64,000 nucleotides of DNA from Candidatus Latescibacterota bacterium (GTDB lineage Bacteria > Latescibacterota > UBA2968). The stretch lies in NCBI GenBank assembly GCA_965116885.1, contig OZ220741.1, positions 3,712,001 to 3,776,000 of the forward strand. The letters are read 5' to 3'. Below, piece by piece: positions 21,211 to 64,000 of this stretch. The notes under the pieces were generated by a model. That model was not told the DNA's origin. It was given only the letters and a program-made list of their open reading frames with translations, and did no database searches. The translations under genes were made by a program, and so were the position numbers. How positions within the stretch are numbered: the first letter of the stretch is position 1; every line of letters begins with the position of its first letter.

Positions 21211-21266
21211 CTGCTACGACGAAGAGTGAAGGGGTCGGTGGGGGCTGAGGCTGTTCGCTGGCTGCC

Positions 21267-21941: not shown

Positions 21942-21957
21942 TTATTTTTTTCTCCGA

Positions 21958-28035: not shown

Positions 28036-28053
28036 AATATGGGATGAGAGATT

Positions 28054-29679: not shown

Positions 29680-29682
29680 TGA

Positions 29683-40411: not shown

Positions 40412-40426
40412 TACAGGAGATTGCAA

Positions 40427-41905: not shown

Positions 41906-41917
41906 CTTATAGACTTC

Positions 41918-47071: not shown

Positions 47072-47178
47072 TGGACACTCCTTTGTAAGCATCTAATTTA
47101 CAAATTATGACACGCTCTTGCAAAATCATTTATATTGTATAGCGTGCAAATTAGAAATAGGGAACAGAAATAGAGAGG

Positions 47179-47206
47179 TTGACGTCTTAAATTGATGCGT
47201 TATAAT
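47179..47206 (+). promoter_or_regulatory. sigma70-type promoter for the downstream cluster
   Basis: TTGACG-16 nt-TATAAT, ending about 65 nt upstream of ATG 47270. Confidence 0.6.
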
Positions 47207-47269
47207 TATTTTTAGAGAAAAACCGCCCTTTTTTCACCGCCCAATTGGGCATTAAAATAAGGAAAACCG

Positions 47270-49423
47270 ATGAATATACGTACTATTTTTGCTTTGTTGT
47301 TTTGTAATTCCCTTTTGGGAAGTATTTCCGAGGCGTCTGATTGGACGCACTGGCGTGGTCCTATGCAAAATGGTGCTTCGCCAGAGACGGGGCTTATCTC
47401 TACATGGTCTCTGGAGGGCGAAAATCTGATCTGGCATCGCGAGTTTATCGGCAGATCGACACCGATTATTGTAAATGGTCGGGTCTATGTTATCGGGCGA
47501 ACCGGCAAAGACATAACCGAGCAGGAGCACATCGCGTGTTTTGATGCGGAAACGGGCGACCTTATTTGGGAAAAAAAGTTCAATGTCTGGCACTCAACCA
47601 TAACCTTCAATCGTTTGGGATGGTCAAGCCTGGGGGCCGATGGCGAGACCGGTAATATTTACGCCCATCTCGTCAGTGGGTTATTGCTCTGTTTTGATAC
47701 CGATGGCTATGTCCAATGGCAGCGGTCTCTAACCGAAGAATTTAACCGATTCTCCGGTTATGGCGGACGGTTGCACACACCCGTTGTCGATGGCGATCTG
47801 GTCATCATCAGCATGGGCAATCGCGGATGGGCTGGCGCACCGCCTTCTCATCGGTATGTTGCCTTTAATAAACACACGGGTGAAACCGCGTGGATGGCTC
47901 GTCCGGGAGGCGGTGGACAGGTTGATTTAACCGTTTACTCGACGCCTGTTGTCACGACAATCGACGGGCAGCGCGTGTTGATTGCCGGTAATGGCAATGG
48001 CGGCATTTTTGCCTTTAAAGTCGCAACGGGCGAAAAAGTATGGGGTTTTCCATTCAGTAAGCGCGGCATCAATACCTCGCCTGTCGTGGCTGATAATCGC
48101 GTTTATGTCGCACATAGCGAAGAAAATGTCGATAATACCTCTCTTGGTCGCGTTGCGTGTTTGGATGCGCGCACGGGCAAAGAAATCTGGCGACAAGACG
48201 GTATGACAGCGGGATATGCCTCGCCAGCGGTTCACGCGGGGCGCGTCTATGTTATAGATAATTCGGCCAATGTGCATTGTTTGGACGCCAGGACGGGAAA
48301 GCAATATTGGGAGCAAAATATCGGCACTGTGGGCAAGGGATCGCCGACATGGGCCGATGGCAAACTCTATGTTACTGAAGTCAATGGCGGCTTCCAGATT
48401 CTCAAAACGAACAATATGGATGCGGAAGTGCTCGACAAAAAGAAAATCGCTATGCCCGAAGGTGGGCATGCCGAGATCTACGGGTCTGTCGCAGTTGCGT
48501 ATCGCCGCATCTATTTTGCGACCGAAGCCGGGTTGTTTTGCCTGGGCGATAAAAACGCGCGATTTGAAGTCACATCTTCTCCTCATACAAAGCACGAAAG
48601 CGCGCCTTCGGGTGCCGAACCCGCATCTATTCTTTCGATTCCGGCTGAGGCGACCATACAACAGGGCGAGGTATTGCCCCTGCGGGCAGAGGCTTATGAC
48701 GAAAAGGGGCGCTTGATCGGCAATGCCGACGTTGAATGGTCATTGAGCGGCCTGGATGGAGAGGTGAAGAACAACCAGTTTGTACCATCCAGAGCGGGGG
48801 GGGGCTGGATCACGGCCAAACTGGGGGAATTAACCCGACAAACCTGGGTGCGCGTGGTGCCCGATGTGCCCTGGACAGAGGATTTTGAAAATGTTGAAGT
48901 CGGCACAAATCCACTGCACTGGGTGTGGGGGGGCAGGGGTTTCGTGGTGGAGGAAAAAGATGGCAATAAGGTGCTGACAAAACCACCGGCTGCACGCGGT
49001 TTAGACCGTTCAAATCTCTATGTGGCGCCGTACAAACTCAGTGGTTATACTATTCAGGCCGATCTGATGGGTACGCAAAACAAGCGGCGACGTCCCGATA
49101 TGGGGCTTGTCGCGCATCGTTATATCCTCGACCTTCAGGGCATTCACCAGCGCCTTGAAGTGCGGTCGTGGTCGTCGGATTTGCGCATGGCAAAACGCAT
49201 TGATTTCCACTGGGATATGGGGGTGTGGTACACCATGAAAATGAGAGTTGATATCGAAGGCGGCAAAGCCATCGTCCGGGGCAAAGTTTGGGAAAAAGGC
49301 GATCCCGAACCCGATGTGTGGAGTATCGAAGTTGAGGATCCCCTGCCGATAGAAGAGGGTAGCCCCGCGCTTTACGGCTATTCACCCGCCACGATTTACT
49401 ACGATAATGTGAAAGTGTGGTAA
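47270..49423 (+). CDS. secreted PQQ-like beta-propeller protein with C-terminal Ig-like and lectin-like beta-sandwich domains
   Basis: Signal peptide, DWTHWRGP, repeated CLDARTG..W blades and an extra C-terminal region (PAEATI...; WTEDFE...). Confidence 0.8.
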   Translation: MNIRTIFALLFCNSLLGSISEASDWTHWRGPMQNGASPETGLISTWSLEGENLIWHREFIGRSTPIIVNGRVYVIGRTGKDITEQEHIACFDAETGDLIWEKKFNVWHSTITFNRLGWSSLGADGETGNIYAHLVSGLLLCFDTDGYVQWQRSLTEEFNRFSGYGGRLHTPVVDGDLVIISMGNRGWAGAPPSHRYVAFNKHTGETAWMARPGGGGQVDLTVYSTPVVTTIDGQRVLIAGNGNGGIFAFKVATGEKVWGFPFSKRGINTSPVVADNRVYVAHSEENVDNTSLGRVACLDARTGKEIWRQDGMTAGYASPAVHAGRVYVIDNSANVHCLDARTGKQYWEQNIGTVGKGSPTWADGKLYVTEVNGGFQILKTNNMDAEVLDKKKIAMPEGGHAEIYGSVAVAYRRIYFATEAGLFCLGDKNARFEVTSSPHTKHESAPSGAEPASILSIPAEATIQQGEVLPLRAEAYDEKGRLIGNADVEWSLSGLDGEVKNNQFVPSRAGGGWITAKLGELTRQTWVRVVPDVPWTEDFENVEVGTNPLHWVWGGRGFVVEEKDGNKVLTKPPAARGLDRSNLYVAPYKLSGYTIQADLMGTQNKRRRPDMGLVAHRYILDLQGIHQRLEVRSWSSDLRMAKRIDFHWDMGVWYTMKMRVDIEGGKAIVRGKVWEKGDPEPDVWSIEVEDPLPIEEGSPALYGYSPATIYYDNVKVW

Positions 49424-49455
49424 TCTTTATAACCCCTTACAGATAAAGGAATAAA

Positions 49456-50883
49456 ATGAAATTGAAACGACTTTTTAGCGGATGTGTCATCGTTGGTTTA
49501 ATCGTATCGACTGGTATTGCCGAAGAGGTTATGTGGGGATTTACCCCGGATCGCAATCTCGTGTCAGACGCAAAGAATTTGCCGATGAACTGGAATGTAG
49601 AAACGGGTGAAAATATCGCCTGGAAAGCAGATCTCGGTTCGCAGTCCTACGCCGGTCCCATCAGGATTGGTGGGAAAATATTCATGGGTACAAATAACCA
49701 GATTGAGCGCAATCCCAAAATTACGGGTGACAAGGGCGTGATCATGGCTTTTCGGGAATCCGATGGAAAATTTCTCTGGCAAGCAGCGCATCCCAAGCTG
49801 CCCGCGGGGCGCGTCAATGACTGGCCACAACAGGGCATTTGCTCCACGCCTTATATTCGCGGAGATCGGATGTATTATATCTCGAATCAATGTCGCGTGG
49901 TGTGCGCAGATACAGAGGGTTTTTTGGATGGGGAAAATGACGGTCCATACACCGGGGAAGAGGATACGAGCGACATCGGTGTGGATATTATCTGGGAATA
50001 CGACATGATGGAAGAACTGGATGTGTTCCCTCACAATCTGGCGACCTGTTCGCCCGTGGGAGCGGGCAATCTCCTGTTTGTCATCACCGCCAATGGTGTT
50101 GACGAAGGTCACATCGCCATCCCTTCGCCTTTATCGCCCAGCTTTATTGCGGTCGATCTCAATACGGGGGAACTGGTATGGGAAAAAGCCTATCCGGGTG
50201 AAAGTATCTTGCACGGGCAGTGGTCCAATCCCGCTTATGGCGTTATCAATGGCAAGCCGCAGGTGATCTGCCCCGGGGGCGATGGCTGGGTTTATTCAGT
50301 GGAACCCGAGACCGGCGACCTGATCTGGAAATTTGACTGCAATCCAAAAGACGCTGTGTGGGAGTTGGGTGGGCGCGGCACGCGCAATGCGATTATTTCT
50401 ACCCCTGTTATTTACGATAACAAGGTTTTTATCGGTGTTGGGCAAGATCCGGAGCACGGCGAGGGTATTGGTCATTTGTGGGCTATTGACGCGACGGGTA
50501 CAGGAGATGTGACGGGAAGCCATGCGGTGTGGCACTTTGGCAATGAAAATTACAACCGTACCATTTCAACGGTGGGCATCAGCGATGGCCTGCTCTATGC
50601 GGCAGACCTGAGTGGGTTTGTCTATTGTCTCGATCTAAAAACCGGCACACAGCACTGGAAATACGATACATTTGCCGCGATATGGGGATCGCCTTTTGTG
50701 GCTGATGGGAAGGTGTATATCGGCGATGAAGATGGCGATGTGGCGATTTTGAAAGCTGGAACCCAATTTGAATTGATCAACGAAATCAATATGGGCAGCG
50801 CCGTATATACCACGCCTATTGCAAAAGATGGCATGCTCTATATTGGCACGCGCAATACGCTGTATGCGATTAAGGGCAAATAG
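49456..50883 (+). CDS. secreted PQQ-like beta-propeller protein
   Basis: Signal peptide, MWGFTPDRN and blade repeats (AVDLNTGELVW, CLDLKTGTQHW). Confidence 0.8.
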   Translation: MKLKRLFSGCVIVGLIVSTGIAEEVMWGFTPDRNLVSDAKNLPMNWNVETGENIAWKADLGSQSYAGPIRIGGKIFMGTNNQIERNPKITGDKGVIMAFRESDGKFLWQAAHPKLPAGRVNDWPQQGICSTPYIRGDRMYYISNQCRVVCADTEGFLDGENDGPYTGEEDTSDIGVDIIWEYDMMEELDVFPHNLATCSPVGAGNLLFVITANGVDEGHIAIPSPLSPSFIAVDLNTGELVWEKAYPGESILHGQWSNPAYGVINGKPQVICPGGDGWVYSVEPETGDLIWKFDCNPKDAVWELGGRGTRNAIISTPVIYDNKVFIGVGQDPEHGEGIGHLWAIDATGTGDVTGSHAVWHFGNENYNRTISTVGISDGLLYAADLSGFVYCLDLKTGTQHWKYDTFAAIWGSPFVADGKVYIGDEDGDVAILKAGTQFELINEINMGSAVYTTPIAKDGMLYIGTRNTLYAIKGK

Positions 50884-50899
50884 AAGAGGTCATTACAAT

Positions 50900-51988
50900 A
50901 TGGAAGTGTTGGCAACATCTTTTGCTGATAAGATCAAAGATGCGCGCGATACCCTCGATGCCCATGTGCGGGATATGGTCGCGTGGCATTTTAATCCCAG
51001 TACGGGATGTCCGTTCTGGCTGGAATTTGCAGCGGAACTGGATTTTGATCCTCGGCGGGAGATCGGTGGATACAGTGACTTGAAATACCTGGGACATTTC
51101 CAGGACGAATGGCTGCGCGGCGGTCCCGTGCGGCGATGGATCCCGCGGGGGAGTGAGGGACAGCGGACCTATGTATTTGAGACAGGCGGCTCAACTGGGG
51201 TTCCCAAATATCGGATCAGCCAAAACGATTTTCAGATCGACTACGAAATGTTCAGCGAGCACCTTTCTGAAGAAACATTTCCAAAGGGAGCGGACTGGTT
51301 GATGTTGGGGCCAACAGGTCCCCGGCGATTGCGTCTGGCTGTCGAATATCTCTGTCAGATTCGCGGTGGGATTTGCTTTCTCGTGGATCTCGATCCGCGA
51401 TGGGTCAACAAGCTGATCAAGCGCGGCGCGCTTCAGGAACTGGAACTCTACAAAGCGCATGTTATCGATCAGGCGCTCACTATTTTGCGCGCGAATGACA
51501 ATGTGAAGTGCATGTTCACGACTCCCAAGCTTCTCGAAGAATTGTGCGAAAAAATTTCTCTTCAAAAAGCCGGGATTAGCGGCATTTTCTGTGGCGGAAC
51601 TGAGATGAATGCACAATTCAATCGCTTTGCGCGAGAAGAGCTTATCCCGGGTGTTGATTTTGTTCCTACCTACGGCAATACCCTGATGGGACTGGCGTAT
51701 TCCAAACCGCTCGAACCCGGAGACAATTACGCGATTACTTATTATCCACCCGTGCCCCGCGCGTTTATCGAACTGGTGAATCCAAATAATCCCGATGAAG
51801 AAGTCGGTTATGACGAAGTCGGGCGCGTGATGCTGACGACGCTTACGAAAGAATTTTTTATGCCCCGCTTTCTCGAACGCGATGAGGCCGAACGCGCCAA
51901 ACCGATTGAAGCCTATCCCTGGGATGGCGTGAGAAATTTGGGTCTGTTCTCCGAGTTGCAGGAATCAGTCGTCGTTGGGGTGTATTAA
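50900..51988 (+). CDS. EhpF/EsmB1-like short adenylating enzyme (LuxE/PaaK-related)
   Basis: WHFNPSTGCPFWL...LDFDP, FETGGSTGVPK (P-loop), GPTGP, YGNT and FFMPRFLERD.A.R resemble phenazine-modifying EhpF. Start trimmed to ATG 50900. Confidence 0.7.
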   Translation: MEVLATSFADKIKDARDTLDAHVRDMVAWHFNPSTGCPFWLEFAAELDFDPRREIGGYSDLKYLGHFQDEWLRGGPVRRWIPRGSEGQRTYVFETGGSTGVPKYRISQNDFQIDYEMFSEHLSEETFPKGADWLMLGPTGPRRLRLAVEYLCQIRGGICFLVDLDPRWVNKLIKRGALQELELYKAHVIDQALTILRANDNVKCMFTTPKLLEELCEKISLQKAGISGIFCGGTEMNAQFNRFAREELIPGVDFVPTYGNTLMGLAYSKPLEPGDNYAITYYPPVPRAFIELVNPNNPDEEVGYDEVGRVMLTTLTKEFFMPRFLERDEAERAKPIEAYPWDGVRNLGLFSELQESVVVGVY

Positions 51989-52010
51989 ATTGGGTGGATC
52001 GTTTATCCTG

Positions 52011-53150
52011 TCAGGGTAACCCCAACTCACGGCAGAAAGTAGAAAATGGCAACACGCGCGTGTTGTCTGTTGCATTGCCAAAATCCTTCGTGCCCAGATG
52101 TACCTGGTAAAATCGCGGAATATCTGTTCGTTCTCTGAAGTATCGACAGGTGGGAGAAGTACCGCACTCACCAGTTTTGCACTCGACGGCAAATTCGGCA
52201 TATCCATCGCGGAGAACGACAAAATCTACCTCGCGCTTGTCGGTATCTCGGATGAAGCGCAATTCCATGTCATGTCCTTCCGTATCTTGGACATAGTGGC
52301 AGTACTTCAGCAAGTGTCCGGCTACCATGTTCTCAAAACGGGCACCGCGGTCTGCTACGCGCGACCAGTCCCAGAAATACAGTTTCTTTTCCTTGCGTAC
52401 AGCTCTTATCCTCTTCGCTCCAAATGGTGGAATGCGATAGCACAGGTACAGCCTTTCAAAGATTGTGAGCCAGCGTTCGACGGTTTCGTAAGCCACTTGT
52501 AAGAGTTTGCTGAGGCTGTTGACCGAAAGCGGGGATCCCACGCAGGCGGGCAGGTGAGACAGTAGCAGGTCCAGCATGGATACCTCTCGCACATTTTCCA
52601 GATCGCGGAGATCTTCATAGATGACTCTTGCGGAATGCTCGCGCAGCCACCTGCGGTGAAAGCGCGTCTCCCCCCTGAGAAAAGGCTCGGGGAAACCGCC
52701 AAATCTGAGCAATTGCACCACGAGCGCGTTATCTGACTCCCGTCCGCGTTCCGTCAGTGTGAAGGGATGAAGACGGTAGTAGTGATATCGCCCCTGCAAA
52801 GAGTCGCCGCCTTTGCGGTAGTAGTCCAGCCGAGCCGAGCCGGTAACGATAAAGGAAATGGATGTCTTGTTTTTGTCGAATAATCCCTTCATTAGATTTC
52901 GCCATTGCGCATACTTGTGAATTTCATCGAAAATGATGCGGGTCTGGCCAGAAGGGAGTCTTCCCGCCAAAATATCCTCGCGATCGGCCAGTACATCCCA
53001 GTTCAGGTAGGCAGGTGACGATTCATTTTGGCTTTGTCCCAGCAGGGAGATTGCGAGTGTTGTTTTTCCAACCTGACGTGGCCCTCCGATGAATATCATC
53101 CTGTCTGCGATATCTGCTTCAATATGATCCGTGATGTAGCGGGGTTCCAT
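52011..53150 (-). CDS. AAA+ ATPase with C-terminal DUF4143 domain
   Basis: GPRQVGKTT, IFDEIH, VTGSA, FGGFPEP, KLYFWD, FENMV, REVDFV and VECK. Confidence 0.9.
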   Translation of the reverse strand: MEPRYITDHIEADIADRMIFIGGPRQVGKTTLAISLLGQSQNESSPAYLNWDVLADREDILAGRLPSGQTRIIFDEIHKYAQWRNLMKGLFDKNKTSISFIVTGSARLDYYRKGGDSLQGRYHYYRLHPFTLTERGRESDNALVVQLLRFGGFPEPFLRGETRFHRRWLREHSARVIYEDLRDLENVREVSMLDLLLSHLPACVGSPLSVNSLSKLLQVAYETVERWLTIFERLYLCYRIPPFGAKRIRAVRKEKKLYFWDWSRVADRGARFENMVAGHLLKYCHYVQDTEGHDMELRFIRDTDKREVDFVVLRDGYAEFAVECKTGECGTSPTCRYFRERTDIPRFYQVHLGTKDFGNATDNTRVLPFSTFCRELGLP

Positions 53151-53171
53151 ACTTATCACCTTTCTCGTATG

Positions 53172-53237
53172 TCGTGAGTATTTTAGACTATACCTTAATA
53201 TACTCACGAGTATTTCAGAGTCAATGTGAAAATACTC
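53172..53237. promoter_or_regulatory. paired GAGTAT/ATACTC inverted repeats upstream of the AAA-DUF4143 gene (operator-like)
   Basis: TCGTGAGTAT (53172)...ATACTCACGA (53200) and GAGTATTT (53208)...AAATACTC (53230). Confidence 0.5.
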
Positions 53238-53395
53238 TTATATCTCATTGTGCTTGCTTTTACCGGGACAAAAAGCTATTTTTTTATGCTATTCGCGAGC
53301 TAAAGCCTCACTTGGAGATGATTTAGTGGTTATATAAATTTCTTTTTTGAATGTTGCAGAGAAGCGATCATTAGTCTTTTAAAGAGGCGAAATAC

Positions 53396-54820
53396 ATGAT
53401 TCACTTACCCATTTTACGCGCGGGGGAACCGTACACGAGCTTAAGCGTTCAGGAAGTGTCGCATATTCAAACTGGCGAGCCGCTCGTTCAGGTCAGTCAG
53501 GCAAATCGGGGGCTGGTTGCGAAAGACTTAAATGCAGCGGCGGCGAACAAACGGGTGCTCGACAGGCTGAGTGTATCCGAACTCGTGGGCATAACCCGCG
53601 AAGCCGCGCGCTTATTTGCAGAAGCCGATTTGCCCATTGGCGATCATATCCAGACGCCCGATGACTATGTCAAACAGGTGTCTGGTACAACGGGTATGCC
53701 CGAGGCTCTCTGCCGCGCGAATATGGAAAAGATTCAACTCGTGTGTACGGAGATCGAAGCTATTTTAGGTGGTCTCACGCGCGGGTTAGACCTCGCTGTG
53801 TTCGATGAGGGCTGGTACAATCAGGATGGTCGCTCTCTCAGCTATATATGTCAGGCCGATGCCCTCGGGGCTATATTGCCGAGCAATTCGCCGGGAGTAC
53901 ATGCGCTTTGGGTTCCGTCTATACCGCTCAAGGTGCCCCTTGTTCTAAAACCCGGGCGCGAAGAGCCCTGGACGCCTTTTCGAATTGCACAGGCGTTTAT
54001 AGAAGCGGGGTGCCCGCCAGAAGCGTTTGGGTTCTATCCGACGGATCACGGTGGTGCCACTGAAATTTTGCTTCGCTGCGGTCGCTCCATGCTCTTTGGG
54101 GGCGGGGCGACGGTCGCGCCCTGGCTGAGCGATCCCCGCGTGGAAATCCACGGGCCTGGGCAGAGTAAGGTCATTATTGGCGAAGATGTGATAGACCGCT
54201 GGGAGGACTATCTCGACATCGCGGTTGCCTCAATTGCTGCAAATGGCGGTCGCTCTTGCATCAATGCGTCGGGCGTGTGGGTTCCCGCGCATGGTCGAGA
54301 AATTGCCGAAGCACTCGCAGAGCGATTGGCAAAAGTAGTCGGGAGACCTCTGGATGATCCGGAAGCGCAGATCGCGGCATTTACCAATCCCACATTTGCC
54401 GATCAAATTTCGACAGCGATAGACATTCATCTAAAAACTCCAGGGGCTGAAGATTTGACTGAAAAATTGCGCGGTGATCGGCTGGTCGAGATCGATAGAT
54501 TGAAATTCTTAAATCCCACGGTTGTCTGGTGCGATGATTTTGAACATCCTCTTGCAAATACCGAATATCTGTTCCCTTATGCGAGTGTGGTCGAAGTTCC
54601 GCAGTCGGAAATTCTGGACGAGATTGGACCGAGTCTCGTGGTGACAGCAATAACAGAGGACAGTGCATTTATCGACAAATTGCTCAATTCGCCCCATGTG
54701 GAAAGACTCAATGTGGGCGAGATTCCCACGCATCAGATTTCATGGGATCAACCGCACGAGGGCAATTTGTTCGAACACCTGTATCGGCAGCGCGCGCTGC
54801 AATGGGCGAAACAGGCATAG
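53396..54820 (+). CDS. aldehyde dehydrogenase-fold acyl reductase (EhpG/EsmB2/LuxC-like)
   Basis: LPSNSPGVHALW, KPGREEPWTP.R, FYPTDH, HGPGQSKV, NGGRSCINAS (catalytic Cys), EYLFP and PHEG. Confidence 0.75.
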   Translation: MIHLPILRAGEPYTSLSVQEVSHIQTGEPLVQVSQANRGLVAKDLNAAAANKRVLDRLSVSELVGITREAARLFAEADLPIGDHIQTPDDYVKQVSGTTGMPEALCRANMEKIQLVCTEIEAILGGLTRGLDLAVFDEGWYNQDGRSLSYICQADALGAILPSNSPGVHALWVPSIPLKVPLVLKPGREEPWTPFRIAQAFIEAGCPPEAFGFYPTDHGGATEILLRCGRSMLFGGGATVAPWLSDPRVEIHGPGQSKVIIGEDVIDRWEDYLDIAVASIAANGGRSCINASGVWVPAHGREIAEALAERLAKVVGRPLDDPEAQIAAFTNPTFADQISTAIDIHLKTPGAEDLTEKLRGDRLVEIDRLKFLNPTVVWCDDFEHPLANTEYLFPYASVVEVPQSEILDEIGPSLVVTAITEDSAFIDKLLNSPHVERLNVGEIPTHQISWDQPHEGNLFEHLYRQRALQWAKQA

Positions 54821-54823
54821 GAG

Positions 54824-55939
54824 ATGAAAGCATTTGATTTTTATCCCACTACACGCGTGGTGTTTGGGGAGGGCACGCTCGCGCAGTTGGGGAAACTATC
54901 AGAAAAATTGGGCGGTAGCCGTATTCTTTTTGTGACCGATCCAGGGATTGTAAGTGCCGGGCTTGCAGACCGTGCGATTGCGGTGCTTCAGCGCGCTTCC
55001 CTGGATTTTTTTGTATTTGATGGTGTGGATGAAAATCCCACGACCGCGCACATTGGGGCCGGTGTCGCGTTCGCAAAATCGCGTGGAAATATTGATTTGA
55101 TCGTCGGTATGGGTGGGGGGAGCGCGATGGATTGCGCTAAGGGAATCAATTTTATCCTGACCAACGGCGGTCAGATGGAAGATTATTGGGGTATGGGCCA
55201 TGCGGTAAAACCCATGTTGCCTTCTATCGGGATTCCAACGACTGCGGGTACAGGGAGTGAAGCACAGTCCTACGCGCTTATTTCCGATGCAAAAACGCAT
55301 GTCAAGATGGCCTACGGCGATCTGAAAGCGCGATTTCGAAGTGTTATTCTCGATCCGTCACTGGTCGAAAGTGTGCCGAAAAAAGTCGCAGCAGCAGCGG
55401 GTATAGACGCCATTGCACACGCTATCGAAAGTTATGTTTGCACGCGCCGGAATGCCATTTCTATGATGTTCTCGCAAAAGGCGTGGCAATTGCTTTCATC
55501 GAGTTTTGAAAGCGTGCTGAAGGATGCTTCCGATAGCGAGGCGAGGGGAAAAATGCTTTTGGGGGCGCACTTTGCCGGCGCGGCTGTTGAGAATGCCATG
55601 TTGGGTGCCGCACATGCGTGTGCCAATCCATTGACCGCGCATTTTGGTATTACACATGGTGTTGCTGTGGCACTTATGCTACCCGCTGTCGTCCAATTTA
55701 ATGGAGAAACCGCAGGCACGCGCTATCGTGGACTTGGATCCGATGTTGATGAACTCGTCGAGAAGGTCGTTTTTCTGAAAGAATGTGCAAATCTGCCTTT
55801 TCAACTGCGCGACCTCGGTGTAGCACATGACAGCCTCCCAACACTGGCAAAAGATGCAACTGAACAATGGACAGGTACGTTTAATCCGAGACCTGTGGAT
55901 GAAGATGATTTTTTTGTCCTTTACGAATCTGTGTATTGA
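54824..55939 (+). CDS. iron-containing alcohol dehydrogenase
   Basis: GGGSAMDCAK, IPTTAGTGSE, DAIAHAIE, HACANPL and HGVAV. Confidence 0.92.
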   Translation: MKAFDFYPTTRVVFGEGTLAQLGKLSEKLGGSRILFVTDPGIVSAGLADRAIAVLQRASLDFFVFDGVDENPTTAHIGAGVAFAKSRGNIDLIVGMGGGSAMDCAKGINFILTNGGQMEDYWGMGHAVKPMLPSIGIPTTAGTGSEAQSYALISDAKTHVKMAYGDLKARFRSVILDPSLVESVPKKVAAAAGIDAIAHAIESYVCTRRNAISMMFSQKAWQLLSSSFESVLKDASDSEARGKMLLGAHFAGAAVENAMLGAAHACANPLTAHFGITHGVAVALMLPAVVQFNGETAGTRYRGLGSDVDELVEKVVFLKECANLPFQLRDLGVAHDSLPTLAKDATEQWTGTFNPRPVDEDDFFVLYESVY

Positions 55940-55941
55940 TC

Positions 55942-56022
55942 CGCAGATGGGCGCAGATGGAAGGCTTTTATGCACACACATGATGAAACAGGTAACAACG
56001 TAACCCTCTGTGTTCATCTGTG
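55942..56022 (+). repeat. CGCAGAT-type inverted repeat (16-bp RNA stem) overlapping the start of the next gene
   Basis: CGCAGATGGGCGCAGA pairs with TCTGTGTTCATCTGTG, and all four mismatches are G-U pairs. A related single arm is at 33770-33786. Confidence 0.6.
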
Positions 56023-57127
56023 TAAAACGCTCAAATTATTCGCTGTCTTCTTTTTGGGTTTATTTTTCATTCCCGTCCAGGCAGAAGAATGGAGCCGATT
56101 TCGCGGGGATGCACAATCTACGGGTGTTGCAAATAGCAGCCTGCCCGCTGAACTGGATGTGTTGTGGACAGCGCAAGTCGAAATAGGGATTGAATCCACC
56201 GCCGCAATTTGGCAAGACGCGGTGTATGTGGGCGGGTTGGATGAAAAGCTGTATGCTTTTGATTTTGATAGCGGTGCGATCAAGTGGACGTATGTGGCTA
56301 CGGGTGAGATCAAATCATCGCCACTGGTTTTTGAAAAAACCGTGTTTTTCGGCGATGGCAATGGCGTTTTTCACGCTGTTGATGCACAAACAGGTAATGC
56401 ATTGTGGACGTTTCAAACGGATGGGGAGATTATCTCGTCGGCAAATGCAACCGGGGGGCGCATCCTGTTTGGGTCTTATGATCAGTTCTTATATTGCCTC
56501 GCGCCGGACGATGGGTCTTTGTTGTGGAAGATAGAAACGGATGGTTATGTTCACGGCATGCCAGCTATCGCACAAGCGCATACGCTGATCGCGGGGTGTG
56601 ATGGCCTTTTGCGCGTTATCGATATTGCCAGCGGAAAAGAGCAATCGCAAATTGAACTCGGTGCTTATGTGGGTGCCAGCGCAGCCGTTCATCAGACGCG
56701 GGCTTATGTGGGGACTTATGAAAGCCAGGTCTTGTGCCTTGACTTAACGGCAAAAGAAATTGTCTGGCGATACGAACATCCGCAGCGAAAATTGCCCTAT
56801 TTTGCATCGCCATCCATAACTCCTGAGCGGGTTATTGTTGCAGGGCGCGACAAAATGGTTCACGCGCTTGATCCCGATACGGGCGATGTTTTGTGGACTT
56901 ACACGTCCCGATCCCGATTTGAAGCATCTCCGGTTGTGGTGGGTGATCGCGTTTTTGCAGGGACCTCAGGTGGCAAAATCGTGGCATTAAATATCGAGAC
57001 CAGTGAACTCGATTGGGAATTTGTGACCGGATCGGAATTTGTTGCCTCGCCCAGTGTGGCGCGCGAGCGACTGATTATTGGCACGACAGACGGCACGTTA
57101 TATTGTTTTGGAAAGGCGGAAGAATGA
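55970..57127 (+). CDS. secreted PQQ-like (BamB-like) beta-propeller protein
   Basis: Hydrophobic signal ending VQA-EEWSRFRGD, then regular A.D..TG...W...T.GEI.SS blades. Confidence 0.82.
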   Translation: MHTHDETGNNVTLCVHLCKTLKLFAVFFLGLFFIPVQAEEWSRFRGDAQSTGVANSSLPAELDVLWTAQVEIGIESTAAIWQDAVYVGGLDEKLYAFDFDSGAIKWTYVATGEIKSSPLVFEKTVFFGDGNGVFHAVDAQTGNALWTFQTDGEIISSANATGGRILFGSYDQFLYCLAPDDGSLLWKIETDGYVHGMPAIAQAHTLIAGCDGLLRVIDIASGKEQSQIELGAYVGASAAVHQTRAYVGTYESQVLCLDLTAKEIVWRYEHPQRKLPYFASPSITPERVIVAGRDKMVHALDPDTGDVLWTYTSRSRFEASPVVVGDRVFAGTSGGKIVALNIETSELDWEFVTGSEFVASPSVARERLIIGTTDGTLYCFGKAEE

Positions 57128-58470
57128 GCGAGCAAATCCAGATTCCAGAGCCAGCAACGACCCGTAAAGTGTGGAAGGAAACAGATGTTGGAAGCGTGTT
57201 TGTTTCCAATTATCCGCCTTACTCTTTCTGGCGCGACGAAAACACAGTAGAGATTGAAGAGATGTTGCACGCATCCGATTCGGGGGATAGAGAAACACCT
57301 CTGGGCCTTTATATGCATATCCCATTTTGCCGAAAGCGGTGCAAGTTCTGTTATTTTCGGGTTTATACAGATCGCAATAGTGCTGAAATTCAAACGTATT
57401 TAGATGCTTTGGCAAAAGAGGTGGAAACGTATAGTACCTTGCCGCGTGTTGCAGGTAGAAAATTGAACTTTGTTTATTTTGGCGGTGGTACGCCGTCTTA
57501 TATTAGTGTCAAACACTTAAAGGCTCTGGTTGACAGGGTCAAGGCTGTGATGCCGTGGGATGATGCGGAAGAGGTGGCATTTGAGTGCGAGCCGGGCACG
57601 CTTTCACAGTCCAAAGTTGAGGCTGTTCGGGAAATTGGCGTCACGCGCTTGAGCCTGGGTTTGGAGAACTTAAACGACGATATTTTACGGGAGAATGGTC
57701 GCGCACATGTCAGCAAAGAAATTTACAGGGCTATGCCCTGGGTCAAGGCGCAGGAATTTGCACAGGTCAATGTGGATTTAATCTCCGGTATGGTTGGGGA
57801 ATCGTGGGAGACATGGCGAGATACAGTGCAGGGCACCATTGATCTCGATGCGGATAGCGTTACTATCTATCAGATGGAATTGCCGTTTAATACGACGTAT
57901 TCAAAAGCCATACGCGATGGAGGAGGTTTGCCGGTCGCAGATTGGGCTACCAAGCGCGCGTGGCACAATTATGCGATTGAAGAGTTTGCCAAAGCGGGTT
58001 ATGAGACATCGAGTGCTTATACGCTGGTAAAAAAAGGTCGTCTGAATAAATTCGTCTATCGAGATGCCCTTTGGCGCAGCGCGGATCTCATCGGTACGGG
58101 TGTGGCTTCTTTTTCACATGTGGGTGGTATGCATTTTCAAAACCAGACGCATTGGGATCCCTATATCGAAACTGTTGGAAAAGGGCAACTGCCGATCAAT
58201 CGATCTTTTGTGCCAACAAAAGAAGAGCGACTGATTAGAGAGATGATTTTACAACTCAAGCTGGGACGAATTGAAACAGCGTATTTCCAGAATAAATTTG
58301 GTGTCAATATTCTGCGCCAATTTGGTGAAGCCTATCAAAAACTCAGGGATTACGAGATGCTGGATTTCGATTCGCAAAGTATCACTCTGAGCCGGGAGGG
58401 GCTTTTGCGCGTTGATCAATTGTTACCCGAATTTTACCACGAGAAATATCGCAATTCGCGTTATACCTGA
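57124..58470 (+). CDS. HemN-like radical SAM enzyme (class C methyltransferase/coproporphyrinogen III oxidase family)
   Basis: LYMHIPFCRKRCKFCYF (CxxxCxxC), YFGGGTPS, FECEP, TRLSLG and VNVDLISG. Start trimmed to ATG 57124. Confidence 0.9.
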   Translation: MSEQIQIPEPATTRKVWKETDVGSVFVSNYPPYSFWRDENTVEIEEMLHASDSGDRETPLGLYMHIPFCRKRCKFCYFRVYTDRNSAEIQTYLDALAKEVETYSTLPRVAGRKLNFVYFGGGTPSYISVKHLKALVDRVKAVMPWDDAEEVAFECEPGTLSQSKVEAVREIGVTRLSLGLENLNDDILRENGRAHVSKEIYRAMPWVKAQEFAQVNVDLISGMVGESWETWRDTVQGTIDLDADSVTIYQMELPFNTTYSKAIRDGGGLPVADWATKRAWHNYAIEEFAKAGYETSSAYTLVKKGRLNKFVYRDALWRSADLIGTGVASFSHVGGMHFQNQTHWDPYIETVGKGQLPINRSFVPTKEERLIREMILQLKLGRIETAYFQNKFGVNILRQFGEAYQKLRDYEMLDFDSQSITLSREGLLRVDQLLPEFYHEKYRNSRYT

Positions 58471-58495
58471 GCGAACACTAAGCTATGGAGGATTT

Positions 58496-59737
58496 ATGAA
58501 ATACAGGTATTATTTTTTGCTCGCTGTTGTGCTGTGCTTTTCTTCCGCACACGCGGATTGGCCCCAGTGGTTGGGTCCCAACCGGACGGGTATTTCTTCT
58601 GAAACGGGATTGTTGACAACCTGGGCAACTGATGGGCCAACGGTTGTGTGGGAAAAAGAACTCGGTGAGGGGTTTTCCGGCATTTCGGTCGTAGATGGGC
58701 GAGTCTATACGATGTTTTCTGCTGGTGAAGACGAATTTGTCATTTGTCTGAAAGAAAAAACTGGTGAGGAAATCTGGCGTTTCAAGACAGGTGCCAAATT
58801 TTATGAGCGGCAGGGTGGGAATGGCCCCCGTTCTCAGCCAACTGTAGATGGCGAGCGGGTTTTTGTGCTCAGTGCCGAAGGCTGGTTGTACGCGCTCAAT
58901 GCAAAAGATGGGAAAAAACAGTGGCTGGTCGATCTTTACGATGGGCTGGGCAGTCGCGTGCCAAAATTCGGGTTTTCGACGTCGCCGCTGGTCGAAGGCG
59001 ATTTGTTGCTTTTAGAGGTGGGCACACGGCAGGGGACGTTTATCGCTTTGGATAAGACCAATGGCGCTGTCAAGTGGGCGTCTCAACGAGACATCGTGTC
59101 TTATTCATCGCCCATTGCTGCAGATATTGCGGGTATTCGCCAGGTGGTTTTTGTTTCGGGCGAAGCCGCAGTTGGGCTTTCTCCTGCGGATGGCTCGCTT
59201 TACTGGCGATTTCCTTGGCACACATCTTATGATCTGAATGTTGCCACGCCAATTTTAGTGCCTCCAGATCGCATATTTATCTCTTCGGGTTATGACCACG
59301 GGGCAGCCCTGTTGCAAATATCCCAGGAGGGAGACGGTTTGAGCGTTAAAAAGGTGTGGGAAAGCCGCGGCATGAAAAACCATTTTGGCACATCGCTCCT
59401 GATCGGCGATTATATCTACGGTTTTGACAATGCGATTTTGAAATGTATTGAAGCAGAGACGGGTAAAGAACAGTGGAGACGCCGGGGATATGGTAAAGGA
59501 ACGCTTATTTATGCCGATGGACAGTTGATCATTTTGAGCGATAAAGGCAAACTCGCATTGGCAGATGCATCGCCCCTGAATTTTAGTGAAAAAGTCAGTG
59601 CACAGGTGCTTTCGGGCAAATGCTGGACACCACCAACACTTGCCAATGGGAAAATTTTTGTGCGCGATATGCACAAGATTGTATGCATGGATGTATCAGG
59701 TCCACAGGCGAAATCTGCGGACACGGAGAGCGAGTAA
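58496..59737 (+). CDS. secreted PQQ-like beta-propeller protein
   Basis: MKYRYY signal peptide ending AHA-DWPQWLGPNRTG, plus blade repeats. GGAGG RBS precedes ATG 58496. Confidence 0.85.
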   Translation: MKYRYYFLLAVVLCFSSAHADWPQWLGPNRTGISSETGLLTTWATDGPTVVWEKELGEGFSGISVVDGRVYTMFSAGEDEFVICLKEKTGEEIWRFKTGAKFYERQGGNGPRSQPTVDGERVFVLSAEGWLYALNAKDGKKQWLVDLYDGLGSRVPKFGFSTSPLVEGDLLLLEVGTRQGTFIALDKTNGAVKWASQRDIVSYSSPIAADIAGIRQVVFVSGEAAVGLSPADGSLYWRFPWHTSYDLNVATPILVPPDRIFISSGYDHGAALLQISQEGDGLSVKKVWESRGMKNHFGTSLLIGDYIYGFDNAILKCIEAETGKEQWRRRGYGKGTLIYADGQLIILSDKGKLALADASPLNFSEKVSAQVLSGKCWTPPTLANGKIFVRDMHKIVCMDVSGPQAKSADTESE

Positions 59738-59782
59738 TAGTCGGAAAAGGCCGGGGGGCAACCGATAACCGGAGAGGTCACG

Positions 59783-61915
59783 ATGCGTTATTTTCAACAG
59801 GTTTTAATTTTTATCTGTATTCTGGGCCTGACGGGTAATCCTATTTTTGCGCAAAATACAGAAGAGGAGGAAAAGAAGGAAGAGGAAGAACTGCCCGTTT
59901 ATGCGGGGGAAGAGATTGTGGTGACGGAGAGCAAGGAAAAAGTGCCTACGGTGAGCACTATCGCGTCGAAGGTTCCCATTCCAATCCGCTTGACTCCGGC
60001 GAGTATCGGTGTGGTCAATCACGGGTTGTTCCAGCACCAGAGTGGCGTGGTTTTGGGGGATGCGCTGCGAAATGTAAGCGGGGTCAATATTCAGACCGTA
60101 TTTGGCGTGACGGATTTTTTCGTCATTCGCGGGTTCGATTCGCTTTCCAGCGGGTTGGTGCTCACCGATGGCGCATCTGAGCCGGAAGCCACATTTTACA
60201 ATCTTTACAATCTGGAGCGCGTGGAGGTACTCAAGGGACCAGGCGCATTTTTATACGGCGGCAATCCGCTTTCTGGATCGGTGAATCTGAGTCGCAAACA
60301 ACCGATTTTTACAAATGCGCTCCAGGTCGGGGGTTCTTACGGTCCTTACAATACGATTCGAGGAACCGCAGATGCTAATTGGGCAGATATCGATCAGGGT
60401 GTTGCCTTGCGCGTCAATGCACTGCGACAGGTTTCTGATAGCTATCGAGACGATAAAGACAGCGGTTTGTGGGCTGTGAATCCCGCGGCGACATGGCGGC
60501 CCAGTGACAGAACCACAGTGACTGCCAATTTTGAATATGTCACCAGCAGATACAAATCGGATGCGGGCCTTCCTATTATCAATGAGGCGGTCGCAGATGT
60601 GCCGCGCACACAATCGTATCAATCGCCTTTTGATGCGTCAGATCAAGATATTTATCGGGCGCGCGTCGATCTTCACTCTCGCTTGTCGAGACAGGTCACG
60701 CTTCGCAATAAGTTTTATTATACCGATTTTTCATGGGTGTCTCAGGGCACGTTGTTCAGCGGCATTTTTCCCAATGCTCAGGGAAGTCTGGACATTCTGC
60801 GTTCACTTGTTCTGTTGGATGACCGCCAGAAAGTGTTGGGCAATCAGTTTGAGTTTTTATCCACATTCCGCACGGGGCATGTAGAGCACACGCTGCTTAC
60901 CGGACTGGAGTTGATGCAGTGGAAAGACAAATTTACCTTAGATGTGGCTGCTTTGCCCAATATCGATGTGTTCAATCCCGTAGAGACCGCGAGCACGAGC
61001 CAACCTCATTTTATTATTCCAGGGCAATCGCAGGGGGCGGATTCAAAAAGTCTCGTTGTCGCGCCCTATGTCGTGAATCGCATTGTCTTTTGTCCATGCT
61101 ATGAGGCATTTGTAGGTGTGCGATATGACCGCATTGATTACAATGATCCCCTGACTTCCACCTCTCGCGATTACAACAAATTGAGTCCTATGGCTGGTAT
61201 GGTGTTTTCGCTTAAGGAGGACCTCTCATTTTACGCCAATGTGGGTAAAGCATTTGCGCCTCCTTCCAGCCTGGTCGCAGGCCCGCGAGAGACCGAAGAG
61301 AGTTTTCAGATGGAAGTGGGCGCGAAAAAATTCCTGGTGGACGACCGTCTGCACGCGAGTCTCGCTGTTTATCATCTGGCAAAAAGTAATATCGGAATTC
61401 CCGATGCGACGGGTGTCACACAGCAAGATGGTGATCAACGGTCTCGCGGTGTTGAGGCCGAGGTGATGATGCGCCCAGTGAGAAATTGGCACACATTTTT
61501 GTCCTACTCATTTTCCAATGCGACACTCACCCGCTTTGCCGAGTTTGTTCCCGTGTTCACGCAGACGGGTATCACATACCAGCTTATGGATCGTTCGGGA
61601 AATAGGGCGGCTTTTTCGCCACGCCATATTTTTAATGTGTGGACGGCGAGAGGATTTGACAACGGGTTGGAATTTGGGATTGGGGCGCGCTATGTCACCA
61701 ACCAGTTTATTGCTGCAGACAATCAATTTCAAATTGGGGATGTATTGACGCTGGATGCATCCGCGTCTTATACGTACAGGCAGATGAAATTTCGCATCAA
61801 TGCGAAAAATTTGACCAATCGGGAATACGAAACGCAGGGTAGCCTCGGCGCCCCCACCTCAGTTATTCCGGCCAATCCATTTGGCCTGTACTGTGCTTTT
61901 GAAGTCAATATTTAA
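59783..61915 (+). CDS. TonB-dependent outer membrane receptor
   Basis: Signal peptide, TonB box-like EEIVVT, plug TPASIGVV..ALRNVSGV..FVIRGF, ERVEVLKGPGAFLYG and KNLTNREY near the C-terminus. Confidence 0.92.
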   Translation: MRYFQQVLIFICILGLTGNPIFAQNTEEEEKKEEEELPVYAGEEIVVTESKEKVPTVSTIASKVPIPIRLTPASIGVVNHGLFQHQSGVVLGDALRNVSGVNIQTVFGVTDFFVIRGFDSLSSGLVLTDGASEPEATFYNLYNLERVEVLKGPGAFLYGGNPLSGSVNLSRKQPIFTNALQVGGSYGPYNTIRGTADANWADIDQGVALRVNALRQVSDSYRDDKDSGLWAVNPAATWRPSDRTTVTANFEYVTSRYKSDAGLPIINEAVADVPRTQSYQSPFDASDQDIYRARVDLHSRLSRQVTLRNKFYYTDFSWVSQGTLFSGIFPNAQGSLDILRSLVLLDDRQKVLGNQFEFLSTFRTGHVEHTLLTGLELMQWKDKFTLDVAALPNIDVFNPVETASTSQPHFIIPGQSQGADSKSLVVAPYVVNRIVFCPCYEAFVGVRYDRIDYNDPLTSTSRDYNKLSPMAGMVFSLKEDLSFYANVGKAFAPPSSLVAGPRETEESFQMEVGAKKFLVDDRLHASLAVYHLAKSNIGIPDATGVTQQDGDQRSRGVEAEVMMRPVRNWHTFLSYSFSNATLTRFAEFVPVFTQTGITYQLMDRSGNRAAFSPRHIFNVWTARGFDNGLEFGIGARYVTNQFIAADNQFQIGDVLTLDASASYTYRQMKFRINAKNLTNREYETQGSLGAPTSVIPANPFGLYCAFEVNI

Positions 61916-61918
61916 ACT

Positions 61919-63190: not shown

Positions 63191-63209
63191 TTTAATAGAA
63201 AGCGTTTCT

Positions 63210-64000
63210 ATGATTTCAAATCACTACGATGTCATTGTCATTGGTGGAGGACCTGCGGGAAGCACGACAGCCGCGCTGGTCGCTGAATACGGTCACCGCG
63301 TGCTGCTGCTGGAGCGGGAGGAATTTCCCAGATTTCAGATCGGTGAGTCCCTGATGCCGGGTACGTACTGGTCATTCAAACGACTTGGGTTGCTGGATAA
63401 GCTAAAAAAAAGTGAGTTTGTCAAAAAGTACAGCGTTCAGTTTTTCAGCGGATCGGGAAAAGGCTCTGCGCCATTTTATTTTCATTTACACGATCCCCAC
63501 GAAAGTTCTATCACATATCAGGTGTTGCGCAGTGAATTTGATCTTATGATGATGGATAATGCCCGTGAGAAAGGTGCTAAAGTCGAGCAGGGGGCGAGTG
63601 TGCATCAGGTGCATTTTTCCGGGGATAGAGCAACGGGTGTGCAGGTAAGATACCGCGATGGACAGATCAGTGATATATCTGCCAGTGTTATCGTAGATGC
63701 GACGGGGCGAAGCGCGCTTATTTCGAGAAGGCTAAAGACCAAGACGATCGAGCCAGAGCTAAAAAAGGCGTCTATTTTCACGCACTACAAAGGCGCGTTC
63801 CGCGATGAGGGTATTGATGAGGGTGCAACGCTGATTTTACATACGCAAGATAAGGACTCCTGGTTCTGGTACATCCCGCTGGCAGACGATGTGGTCAGCG
63901 TGGGTGTTGTTGGGGGATTGGATTATCTGCTACAAAACCGCAAGAGAACCCCCCAGGAAATTTTTGAAGAGGAGTTGACAAAGTGTATCCGCATGGAAGA
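63210..64000 (+). CDS. flavin-dependent halogenase-like / NAD(P)/FAD oxidoreductase (3' end runs off the window)
   Basis: Not in the ORF track. Manual translation gives YDVIVIGGGPAGS, FPRFQIGESL, FVKKYSV, RSEFD, VDATG and an in-frame WFWYIP (WxWxIP) at 63861. Confidence 0.85.
   Translation, partial: MISNHYDVIVIGGGPAGSTTAALVAEYGHRVLLLEREEFPRFQIGESLMPGTYWSFKRLGLLDKLKKSEFVKKYSVQFFSGSGKGSAPFYFHLHDPHESSITYQVLRSEFDLMMMDNAREKGAKVEQGASVHQVHFSGDRATGVQVRYRDGQISDISASVIVDATGRSALISRRLKTKTIEPELKKASIFTHYKGAFRDEGIDEGATLILHTQDKDSWFWYIPLADDVVSVGVVGGLDYLLQNRKRTPQEIFEEELTKCIRME

Follow-up and report, generated by a model that had tools for sequence, protein, structure and literature searches.

The gene cluster at positions 47270-64000 of a 64,000-nucleotide (nt) stretch of DNA from a Candidatus Latescibacterota bacterium (NCBI GenBank assembly GCA_965116885.1, contig OZ220741.1, positions 3,712,001 to 3,776,000 of the forward strand; the whole stretch is called the window here) is a composite locus, in which a conserved core is accompanied by variable genes for a PaaK-like ligase, a halogenase and one propeller protein, and by an inserted AAA gene. 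Most worth following is the core, which consists of an EhpF-like ligase, a protein of the aldehyde dehydrogenase superfamily (ALDH-like), an iron-containing alcohol dehydrogenase (Fe-ADH) and a radical S-adenosylmethionine enzyme (rSAM), together with its spread across phyla. We tentatively read the locus as built around a deeply conserved set of cytoplasmic enzymes, namely a split module that would convert a carboxylate to an aldehyde and on to an alcohol, a radical SAM step and partners in the cell envelope, and we hold this reading with a confidence slightly short of even.

Genes were assigned by Pfam, NCBIfam and PDB sequence searches, the Pfam scan covering 50 open reading frames (ORFs) of the window. 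The region holds 11 tightly packed ORFs on the + strand and one antisense ORF for an AAA protein, in the order given by an earlier, first-pass annotation of this DNA, whose family labels for all of the genes also agree with the matches found:

47270-49423, + strand: propeller-717, a BamB-like beta-propeller of 717 amino acids (aa); Pfam PQQ_2, E 6.5e-38
49456-50883, + strand: propeller-475, 475 aa; Pfam PQQ_2, E 2.8e-23
50900-51988, + strand: EhpF-like ligase, 362 aa; PDB EhpF (3l2k/3hgu), E 6.6e-43
52011-53207, - strand: AAA_14 + DUF4143 ATPase, 398 aa; Pfam, and PADLOC candidate defence family PDC-S01, E 2.3e-49
53396-54820, + strand: divergent ALDH-superfamily protein, 474 aa; Pfam Aldedh, E 3e-14
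54824-55939, + strand: group III iron-containing alcohol dehydrogenase, 371 aa; Fe-ADH, E 4.5e-46, and ADH_Fe_C, E 1.3e-35
55970-57127, + strand: propeller-385, 385 aa; Beta-prop_ACSF4, 202.7 bits (cutoff 133), and PQQ_2
57121-58470, + strand: HemN-family rSAM, 449 aa; Pfam Radical_SAM and HemN_C
58496-59737 (ORF opens at 58412), + strand: propeller-413, 413 aa; PQQ_2, E 5e-44
59783-61915, + strand: TonB-dependent receptor, 710 aa; plug and barrel Pfam families, TIGR01783, 235.7 bits
61919-63190, + strand: PaaK-family ligase, 423 aa; AMP-binding_C_2, PDB PaaK (4r1l), E 1.7e-56
63210-64000, open at the window end, + strand: flavin-dependent halogenase-like protein, 420 aa in relatives; Trp_halogenase, E 6.8e-20

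Except around the antisense gene, the + strand genes are spaced by -7 to 45 nt. The start of the rSAM gene is overlapped by the stop of propeller-385, and the steps from the ALDH-like to the Fe-ADH gene and from the receptor to the PaaK-like gene measure 3 nt each, as expected for translational coupling. The gap between the PaaK-like and halogenase genes is 19 nt.

Gene order among Latescibacterota

A scan with the rSAM protein, limited to one genome per species, gave 21 loci (L001 to L021), against which all window proteins were compared by tblastn. Twenty of these loci are from Candidatus Latescibacterota metagenome-assembled genomes (MAGs), with rSAM identities of 81-98%, and the remaining one, L021, titled "uncultured Deferribacteres", has an rSAM identity of 62%. 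The loci were grouped into 14 close loci, six at 81-87% rSAM identity, and L021. Gene order holds in the 20 Latescibacterota genomes and partly in the more distant MAG of L021, and the expectation that the cluster would be met in other genomes is thereby confirmed. The complete twelve-gene order was found in L001, L004, L007, L009, L013 and L020.

The ALDH-like, Fe-ADH, propeller-385 and rSAM genes are present in all 14 close loci, and propeller-385 in all 21. The EhpF-like gene was found in 12 of the 14, the remaining two being cut before the gene, and the receptor, PaaK-like and halogenase genes in 13 each, since the short contig of L006 ends first. Propeller-717, counted at more than 50% coverage, was seen in nine close loci; in the other five, its position lies beyond the end of the 10-kb flank or of the contig. 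The propeller at 58496-59737 is a variable member: counted from the ORF opening at 58412 (propeller-441) it occurs in 12 of the 14 close loci, and it is absent in L008, L010, L018 and L019. The AAA gene was detected in 11 close loci. Among the six loci at 81-87% identity, some of which are cut by contig ends, two have the halogenase and four the PaaK-like gene. The covered flank lacks the halogenase in L015, L016, L017 and L021 and the PaaK-like gene in L016 and L021, where the rest of the cluster stays. These counts contradict the earlier view of one fixed 11-gene unit, as the halogenase and PaaK-like genes, one propeller (missing from two of the 14 close loci) and the AAA gene all vary. The PaaK/halogenase pair is in this lineage an accessory to an older core.

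The gene order in L021 is propeller-475, EhpF-like, Fe-ADH, propeller, rSAM, an unassigned gene, two propellers and receptor, so that propellers, receptor and enzymes are interleaved in the same order as in the window at 48-69% identity. The EhpF-like protein is 68.3% identical there, Fe-ADH 56.7% and the receptor 50.6%, and propeller-475, the best conserved of the four propellers, is 69.5% identical over the part covered by the locus. No ALDH-like, PaaK-like or halogenase gene was found within the 15.8 kb covered in L021.

Insertions recur at a hot spot, the intergenic site that separates the EhpF-like gene from the ALDH-like one. In the window only the AAA gene lies between the two, and in L011 and L019 they are directly adjacent. 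The AAA gene is absent in L003, L011, L012, L015 and L016; at the same site L002, L003, L005, L012 and L015 carry a DUF3857/transglutaminase-like gene pair, and L016 carries a YWTD propeller with a DDE transposase. We treat the AAA gene as an unrelated variable insertion outside the pathway. A further ORF of 286 aa, with a weak match to a Cas12f/TnpB-type zinc-finger (TNB), is located between the Fe-ADH and propeller genes of L014 (6954-7814, + strand), another sign of the cluster's tolerance of insertions.

Core enzymes and their spread across phyla

The EhpF-like protein aligns in a single 332-residue stretch (residues 17-348 of 362) with residues 19-351 of the 366 of EhpF. It consists of the ANL N-terminal domain only, without the C-terminal lid domain. 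The ORF opens with a TTG at 50819, and ATG 50900 is the likely start because homologues have this length: 76 of the 120 matches listed are exactly 362 aa and the others 355-388 aa long. No NCBIfam match was obtained for the protein, and its Pfam AMP-binding score was below cutoff. In 57 aligned sequences the loop ETGGSTGVPK (E94-T95-G96-G97, G100, P102 and K103) and the motif Y258-G259-N260-T261 are invariant. The possibility that the EhpF-like and PaaK-like ligases are recent paralogues was rejected, as only the P-loop is common to both.

For the ALDH-like protein, the AlphaFold model (predicted local distance difference test score 87.6) adopts an ALDH fold, with template modelling (TM) scores of 0.70-0.76 to many ALDHs. 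All 62 sequences compared retain C288, N164 and K185, and in the alignment to KauB the Cys coincides with the motif of the catalytic Cys. At the position of the general-base Glu of hydrolytic ALDHs (Glu268, by alignment to KauB) all 62 sequences have a His, H252. The protein is thus predicted to carry the catalytic Cys and the oxyanion Asn and to be without the hydrolytic general-base Glu. Such a pattern suits members of the superfamily in which the Cys thioester, once formed, is not hydrolysed, namely acyl reductases (LuxC, EhpG-type) or CoA-acylating dehydrogenases, and we read the ALDH-like protein as a probable thioester/acyl reductase in an EhpG/LuxC-like role or as a CoA-acylating type.

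The rSAM protein has the CxxxCxxC and GGGTP motifs, homologues of 448-450 aa, a Radical_SAM score of 68.4 bits and a HemN_C score of 21.2 bits, slightly under the cutoff of 24. Its best solved relatives are HemN (1olt, E 1.6e-31) and NocN (E 2.2e-25). Assignments as HemN (TIGR00538, 183.5 bits vs. a cutoff of 324.95), as the ChuW/HutW anaerobic haem-degrading methyltransferase (TIGR04107, 185.5 vs. 400) and as HemW (169.1 vs. 205.4) all failed, and since its scores are below these cutoffs the protein is not an orthologue of any named member. It resembles HemN, ChuW/HutW and the class C enzymes NosN/NocN in its two motifs, its HemN_C region and its 449-aa length, but differs in scoring under the cutoffs of the named families. 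The rSAM and ALDH-like proteins fall below every NCBIfam cutoff, and Fe-ADH below every NCBIfam equivalog cutoff.

To follow the core beyond Latescibacterota we used protein searches, in which at least 8000 candidates each passed the E threshold (1e-30 for rSAM, 1e-10 for the EhpF-like and ALDH-like proteins); the best 120 per protein were listed, and the identities below are those among the matches listed. Below the top EhpF-like match (89%), the other 119 are 72-86% identical, and named sources include KSB1, Calditrichia/Calditrichaeota and Poribacteria. Below the nearest relatives, identities are about 64-76% for the ALDH-like protein, with named matches from Gemmatimonadota, Poribacteria and KSB1 at 65-71%, and about 63-71% for rSAM, with named matches from Latescibacteria, Poribacteria and KSB1 at 63-67%. 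Planctomycetota, Acidobacteriota and Actinomycetota come in as further leads from look-alikes in the Atlas. The three proteins are 63-78% identical between phyla and their genes are among the most conserved of the region, which does not fit the earlier view of them as tailoring enzymes.

Longest-contig values of the 120 listed matches per protein were also compared by eye, an equal value being taken as the same contig. The rSAM and EhpF-like matches have 10 such values in common (e.g. 25357, 43541, 65075 from KSB1, and 181960), the ALDH-like and rSAM matches seven (e.g. 6466 from Poribacteria, and 67392) and the ALDH-like and EhpF-like matches nine (e.g. 2998, 3161 and 3425 nt). Contigs as short as the last three leave room only for neighbours, so the EhpF-like and ALDH-like genes must be adjacent there. 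As indirect evidence, the matching values argue for joint inheritance or transfer of these two genes and the rSAM gene as a group in several phyla. Because the core is 63-78% identical across phyla, a widely shared metabolite or cofactor route fits it better than a halogenated product specific to one lineage.

Searches of Pfam, NCBIfam, PDB and the literature returned no characterised pathway with this combination of genes, in agreement with the first-pass annotation, and EhpF was met only in phenazine contexts. According to the available parts of the phenazine literature, ehpF (AMP-binding) lies beside ehpG (ALDH family) in phenazine clusters, EhpF to EhpO convert phenazine-1,6-dicarboxylate to D-alanylgriseoluteic acid, and griseolutein-type compounds bear a 6-hydroxymethyl group. 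The locus studied here resembles the D-alanylgriseoluteic acid cluster of Pantoea (Enterobacter) agglomerans Eh1087 in having an ANL enzyme of about 360 aa without the C-terminal domain, paired with an ALDH-family protein of about 460-470 aa. We assume that EhpF and EhpG perform the reduction of the acid to the griseolutein hydroxymethyl group; with an alcohol dehydrogenase, the scheme proposed here would yield an acid-to-hydroxymethyl change as in griseolutein-type phenazines. The two differ in that no phz/ehp core genes (phzA-G/ehpA-E) are among the 50 window ORFs or the downstream genes of L001, that the similarity is only moderate and the family here extends to many non-phenazine phyla at the 72-86% given above, and that a HemN-family rSAM is linked here, which the available part of the phenazine-cluster table does not list.

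A similar handover is known from LuxE/LuxC, where the acid is activated by a separate enzyme of about 370 aa, which passes the acyl group to a Cys of an ALDH-superfamily reductase of about 480 aa. The logic is the same, and the LuxC Pfam family is found on 12% of the members of an Atlas cluster close to the ALDH-like protein. In contrast to that system, no Pfam LuxE or LuxC match, no LuxC-type protein among the listed fold matches and no luxD or luciferase genes were found here.

With EhpF/EhpG and LuxE/LuxC as precedents for acyl transfer from a ligase to a Cys and its reduction, the following route is proposed. The EhpF-like enzyme would adenylate a carboxylic acid, as its homology and conserved nucleotide-binding motifs suggest. 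The acyl group may then be taken over by Cys288, invariant in the ALDH-like protein, and reduced with NAD(P)H to the aldehyde; this transfer is suggested by the missing ANL C-terminal domain of the ligase, the retained Cys, Asn and Lys, and the replacement of the hydrolytic Glu by an invariant His. Fe-ADH would convert the aldehyde to the alcohol. For rSAM, the family suggests a further change to the same scaffold, which might be a methylation of the class C type or an oxidative decarboxylation as by HemN. The secreted propellers and the siderophore-type receptor may bind and re-import the product, or deliver a precursor.

The same enzymes could also work in the opposite direction, in an uptake and catabolic or salvage locus where the receptor imports a scarce compound with the help of periplasmic propellers, an alcohol is oxidised to an acyl thioester by Fe-ADH together with a CoA-acylating ALDH, and acids are activated by the ligases to be broken down or reused. 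We regard this as unlikely. Alcohol, aldehyde and acid-CoA enzymes together make up a classic catabolic set, and, like CoA-acylating ALDHs, the ALDH-like protein has no hydrolytic Glu. In addition, the receptor reaches the siderophore-receptor cutoff, no exporter was found in the window, and the rest of the window is ordinary chromosomal DNA with many sugar and oxidoreductase genes. Against salvage, ring cleavage, beta-oxidation and paa genes, the downstream part of such a route, are missing from the window and from L001; the one studied protein related to the EhpF-like enzyme works in biosynthesis, and a HemN-family rSAM and a halogenase are unusual in catabolism.

Several findings tell against the split reductive module that we tentatively prefer. 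The residues of the ALDH-like protein suit a CoA-acylating, oxidative enzyme equally well, and a LuxC-type reductase was not recovered by fold, the matches listed being generic ALDHs (TM 0.68-0.76, 13-18% identity). Pairing of ligase and reductase is not universal, since L021 has no ALDH-like gene in its covered part. Linkage across phyla is deduced from equal longest-contig values and not from contigs viewed, and because 19 of the 20 other full or partial loci are from one phylum, synteny is perhaps partly an inherited neighbourhood. The presence of propellers may be incidental, as PQQ_2 is common in the genome and the family is huge. L021 also keeps a glycosyltransferase gene of family GT4 (60%) and a LolD-like gene (57%) nearby. 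Finally, the window contains no exporter gene.

The core enzymes expose a gap in curated families: they are highly conserved, yet outside NCBIfam cutoffs and, for the EhpF-like protein, also below the Pfam cutoff. Where an enzyme set is widespread and strongly constrained and yet has no name, a gap in the picture of common metabolism is usually behind it, for example a cofactor, a lipid or a compound for metal handling; the phyla concerned here are mostly uncultured. A bolder proposal, which we consider possible but doubtful, is that the EhpF-like, ALDH-like, Fe-ADH and rSAM enzymes form a previously unrecognised pathway common to Latescibacterota, KSB1, Poribacteria, Calditrichota and Gemmatimonadota, and probably to Planctomycetota and Acidobacteriota. 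Such a pathway would make a common small molecule, for instance a new cofactor or metal-binding compound with a reduced (hydroxymethyl or formyl), radical-SAM-modified group, to be used or recaptured by the secreted propellers without pyrroloquinoline quinone (PQQ) and the TonB receptor.

The PaaK-like ligase and halogenase genes

The PaaK-like ligase carries the small C-terminal domain AMP-binding_C_2. It could not be identified as a PaaK equivalog (221 bits vs. 646.3 and 254.7 bits vs. 700) and is a family member only. The halogenase fragment in the window matches PDB 8zop with E 7.9e-51, and also CndH and CmlS; the full-length protein of L001 (420 aa) matches 8zop (E 1e-66), PltA (E 4.9e-53), CndH, CmlS, 5buk and 5bul/5bva, the last of which we take to be Bmp2. 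The protein has the sequences GGGPAG (FAD motif GxGxxG) and WFWYIP (WxWxIP), and its KK pair aligns with the KK pair of PltA, which presumably includes the catalytic Lys of the latter. With these motifs it is predicted to be a flavin-dependent halogenase.

PltA and Bmp2 act on carrier-bound substrates. A carrier protein belonging to this substrate type is not present in the cluster: no carrier-protein family was matched among the scanned ORFs of the window and L001, and the intergenic gaps are too small for an unlisted carrier gene. Likewise, no acyl carrier protein, prenyltransferase or UbiD/UbiX gene, for which the downstream DNA had been suggested as a place to look, was detected among the L001 genes beyond the halogenase. 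The earlier statement that no core gene for a polyketide synthase, nonribosomal peptide synthetase (NRPS), terpene, phz or pqq pathway is visible stands, as none of these families had a Pfam match among the 50 window ORFs. Pfam scans of the window ORFs and the L001 downstream genes also gave no core or precursor gene for ribosomally synthesised and post-translationally modified peptides or for NRPS-independent siderophores (NIS). Polyketide synthase, NRPS and terpene core genes are likewise missing from the scanned genes downstream of the L001 halogenase.

A class of clusters defined by a halogenase and an AMP-binding gene, the "Halo_AMP" pseudoclass, has been mined from sponge metagenomes (Loureiro et al., bioRxiv 2026, 10.64898/2026.08.03.742642). 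In the available text of this preprint, PQQ-like domains are described as frequent, TonB transporters, rSAM, glycosyltransferase (GT), thioesterase (TE) and nucleotide-binding/toxin-antitoxin genes are reported, 9% of the families are Latescibacterota, and the best matches of the ligases are PaaK-type (BagE, YtkN), with no MIBiG match and no product. The PaaK-like and halogenase genes studied here form the defining pair of this class. The differences, as far as the available text goes, are that the class is purely bioinformatic, that the detailed analysis concerns an acidobacterial cluster with P450s, and that the EhpF-like/ALDH-like/rSAM core and its phylum spread are not singled out. The first-pass prediction that rule-based tools for biosynthetic gene clusters would miss the locus is thus partly overtaken by that work.

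All 11 genes could then be one biosynthetic gene cluster of the Halo_AMP kind, making a halogenated and methylated molecule derived from an aromatic acid, which we judge improbable. The pair is adjacent and kept in 13 of the 14 close loci, the halogenase retains WxWxIP and the KK pair and has true halogenases as its closest solved relatives, GT4 and thioesterase genes follow in relatives, and the gene content and Latescibacterota share reported in the available preprint text are in line with such a cluster. Against it, the rest of the cluster persists where the halogenase (L015, L016, L017, L021) or the PaaK-like gene (L016, L021) is missing; neither the window nor L001 encodes a carrier protein, even though PltA and presumably Bmp2 are among the nearest solved structures of the halogenase; and conservation between phyla is much stronger for the core enzymes than is usual for tailoring enzymes. 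The preprint, in its available text, also names no product.

In the reading built around the conserved cytoplasmic enzymes, the PaaK-like ligase and the halogenase would be an accessory module of this genome and its nearest relatives only, which could activate and halogenate an aryl acid. Of the halogenated aromatic product proposed earlier, there remains this optional pair, outside the conserved core. For genome mining, the Halo_AMP halogenase/ligase pair would in this lineage be an add-on to something older.

Envelope genes, upstream region and flanks

All four propellers and the receptor start with signal-like sequences, as read from the translations. Propeller-475 appears to be secreted or lipoprotein-like, propeller-385 is BamB-like and of the eight-blade type, and the C-terminal part of propeller-717 (about 270 aa) has no Pfam match. 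At E<=1e-30 the propeller-475 family has 1329 representatives, frequently as parts of fusion proteins of 800-4400 aa, and its size and many fused forms led us to reject the propellers as a specific marker of the system. If they are linked to the enzyme set and the TonB receptor, the PQQ-less propellers, which are very abundant in these lineages, would gain a first functional handle. A fifth PQQ_2 propeller is located at 2820-4130 (- strand) and a second PhyH-family dioxygenase at 30413-31219 (- strand), both families being expanded here.

The receptor scores above the TIGR01783 cutoff for TonB-dependent siderophore receptors (235.7 vs. 223.5 bits) and has a plug and a 22-strand-type barrel. 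Its best PDB relatives are the siderophore and metallophore receptors 5nec, 5fok, FhuA, CntO and FoxA. The locus is thus similar to siderophore/metallophore loci (PiuA/PiuD, FhuA, FoxA, CntO) in its receptor class and in the placement of the receptor next to cytoplasmic enzymes, but differs from them in that no NRPS, NIS synthetase, opine-type enzyme, periplasmic binding protein, ABC importer or TonB-ExbBD genes are found in the window.

In L001 (17347-21346) the halogenase is followed, with equally tight spacing, by genes for a GT4 glycosyltransferase, a 163-aa protein without family, a YbgC-type thioesterase, a LolD-like ABC ATPase and a MacB/LolCE-like permease. Because packing runs on into these likely housekeeping envelope genes, it cannot by itself set the borders of a pathway. 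The genes from GT4 to LolD/LolCE could be an export and glycosylation arm, or plain envelope housekeeping.

Upstream of the cluster, the sequence TTGACG-16-TATAAT at 47179-47206 (+ strand) matches a sigma-70-like promoter at 11 of 12 positions and is the best promoter-like site of the region. The hexamers of the near-consensus promoter claimed earlier are therefore there; the count of such sites, however, is that expected from shuffles (20 observed vs. 19.1), and the 16-nt spacing is kept in only one of seven aligned relatives (L020), the other six having an extra 25-30 nt between the hexamers. Across eight aligned upstream regions, both the -35-like element and a further block upstream, GCAAAATCA.TTATAT, are conserved.

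Taken at its weakest, the locus would not be a single system but a small enzyme operon among unrelated envelope genes that are abundant in the lineage (propellers, receptor, GT4, Lol), an explanation that we find distinctly improbable. It would account for the tight co-directional packing that continues into the LolD/LolCE-like genes of L001, the insertion hot spot between the EhpF-like and ALDH-like genes, the recurrence of propeller, PhyH and DUF6785 families elsewhere in the window and the unconserved promoter spacing. It does not sit well with L021, where propellers and receptor remain interleaved with the enzymes and propeller-475 is as conserved as the EhpF-like protein (69.5% vs. 68.3%), or with the propeller-385 gene of the window, whose stop runs into the start of rSAM.

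A perfect 12-bp palindrome, GCCCAATTGGGC, is located at 47239-47250 in the 5′ leader, directly before the ribosome-binding site. It is conserved in all eight aligned upstream regions, slightly altered in L017, and this is its sole exact copy in the window; we consider it a candidate operator or hairpin. Its copies were rejected as the mark of a regulon, since four matches at up to two mismatches were found vs. 4.76 expected. A copy with two mismatches falls within the beginning of the divergently transcribed PhyH gene (47065-47076), but copies of this kind are expected by chance. Neither a riboswitch or other Rfam element nor a tRNA was found anywhere in the window.

Divergent from the cluster, at 46337-47092 (- strand), is the gene for a PhyH-family Fe(II)/2-oxoglutarate dioxygenase (Pfam PhyH, E 6.7e-38). 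Its translation contains an HxD motif (WHQD), by which the protein reads as a likely hydroxylase and not as a halogenase type. The upstream flank is covered in two relatives, L011 (92.8% identity) and L017 (71%, partial), and in both of them the gene lies next to the cluster as well. Directly upstream of it, at 44321-46309 (- strand), is one of two paralogous DUF6785+DUF6784 proteins, the other being at 16096-18051 (+ strand); this adjacency is kept in L011, the sole locus with a flank reaching it, and the flank of L017 ends within the PhyH gene.

Elsewhere in the window, the overlapping ORFs at 13359-14066 and 14051-14635 (both - strand) encode the C- and N-terminal halves of a GFO/IDH/MocA oxidoreductase, through a frameshift or assembly error. 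Two beta-lactamase-family proteins are encoded within 4 kb on the - strand, at 4133-5485 (PF00144) and 7914-8717 (class-A-like, PF13354). GC skew is strongly positive (0.21-0.27) at 16001-22000, 28001-30000 and 40001-42000, coinciding with + strand genes, and is 0.07-0.20 in the cluster.

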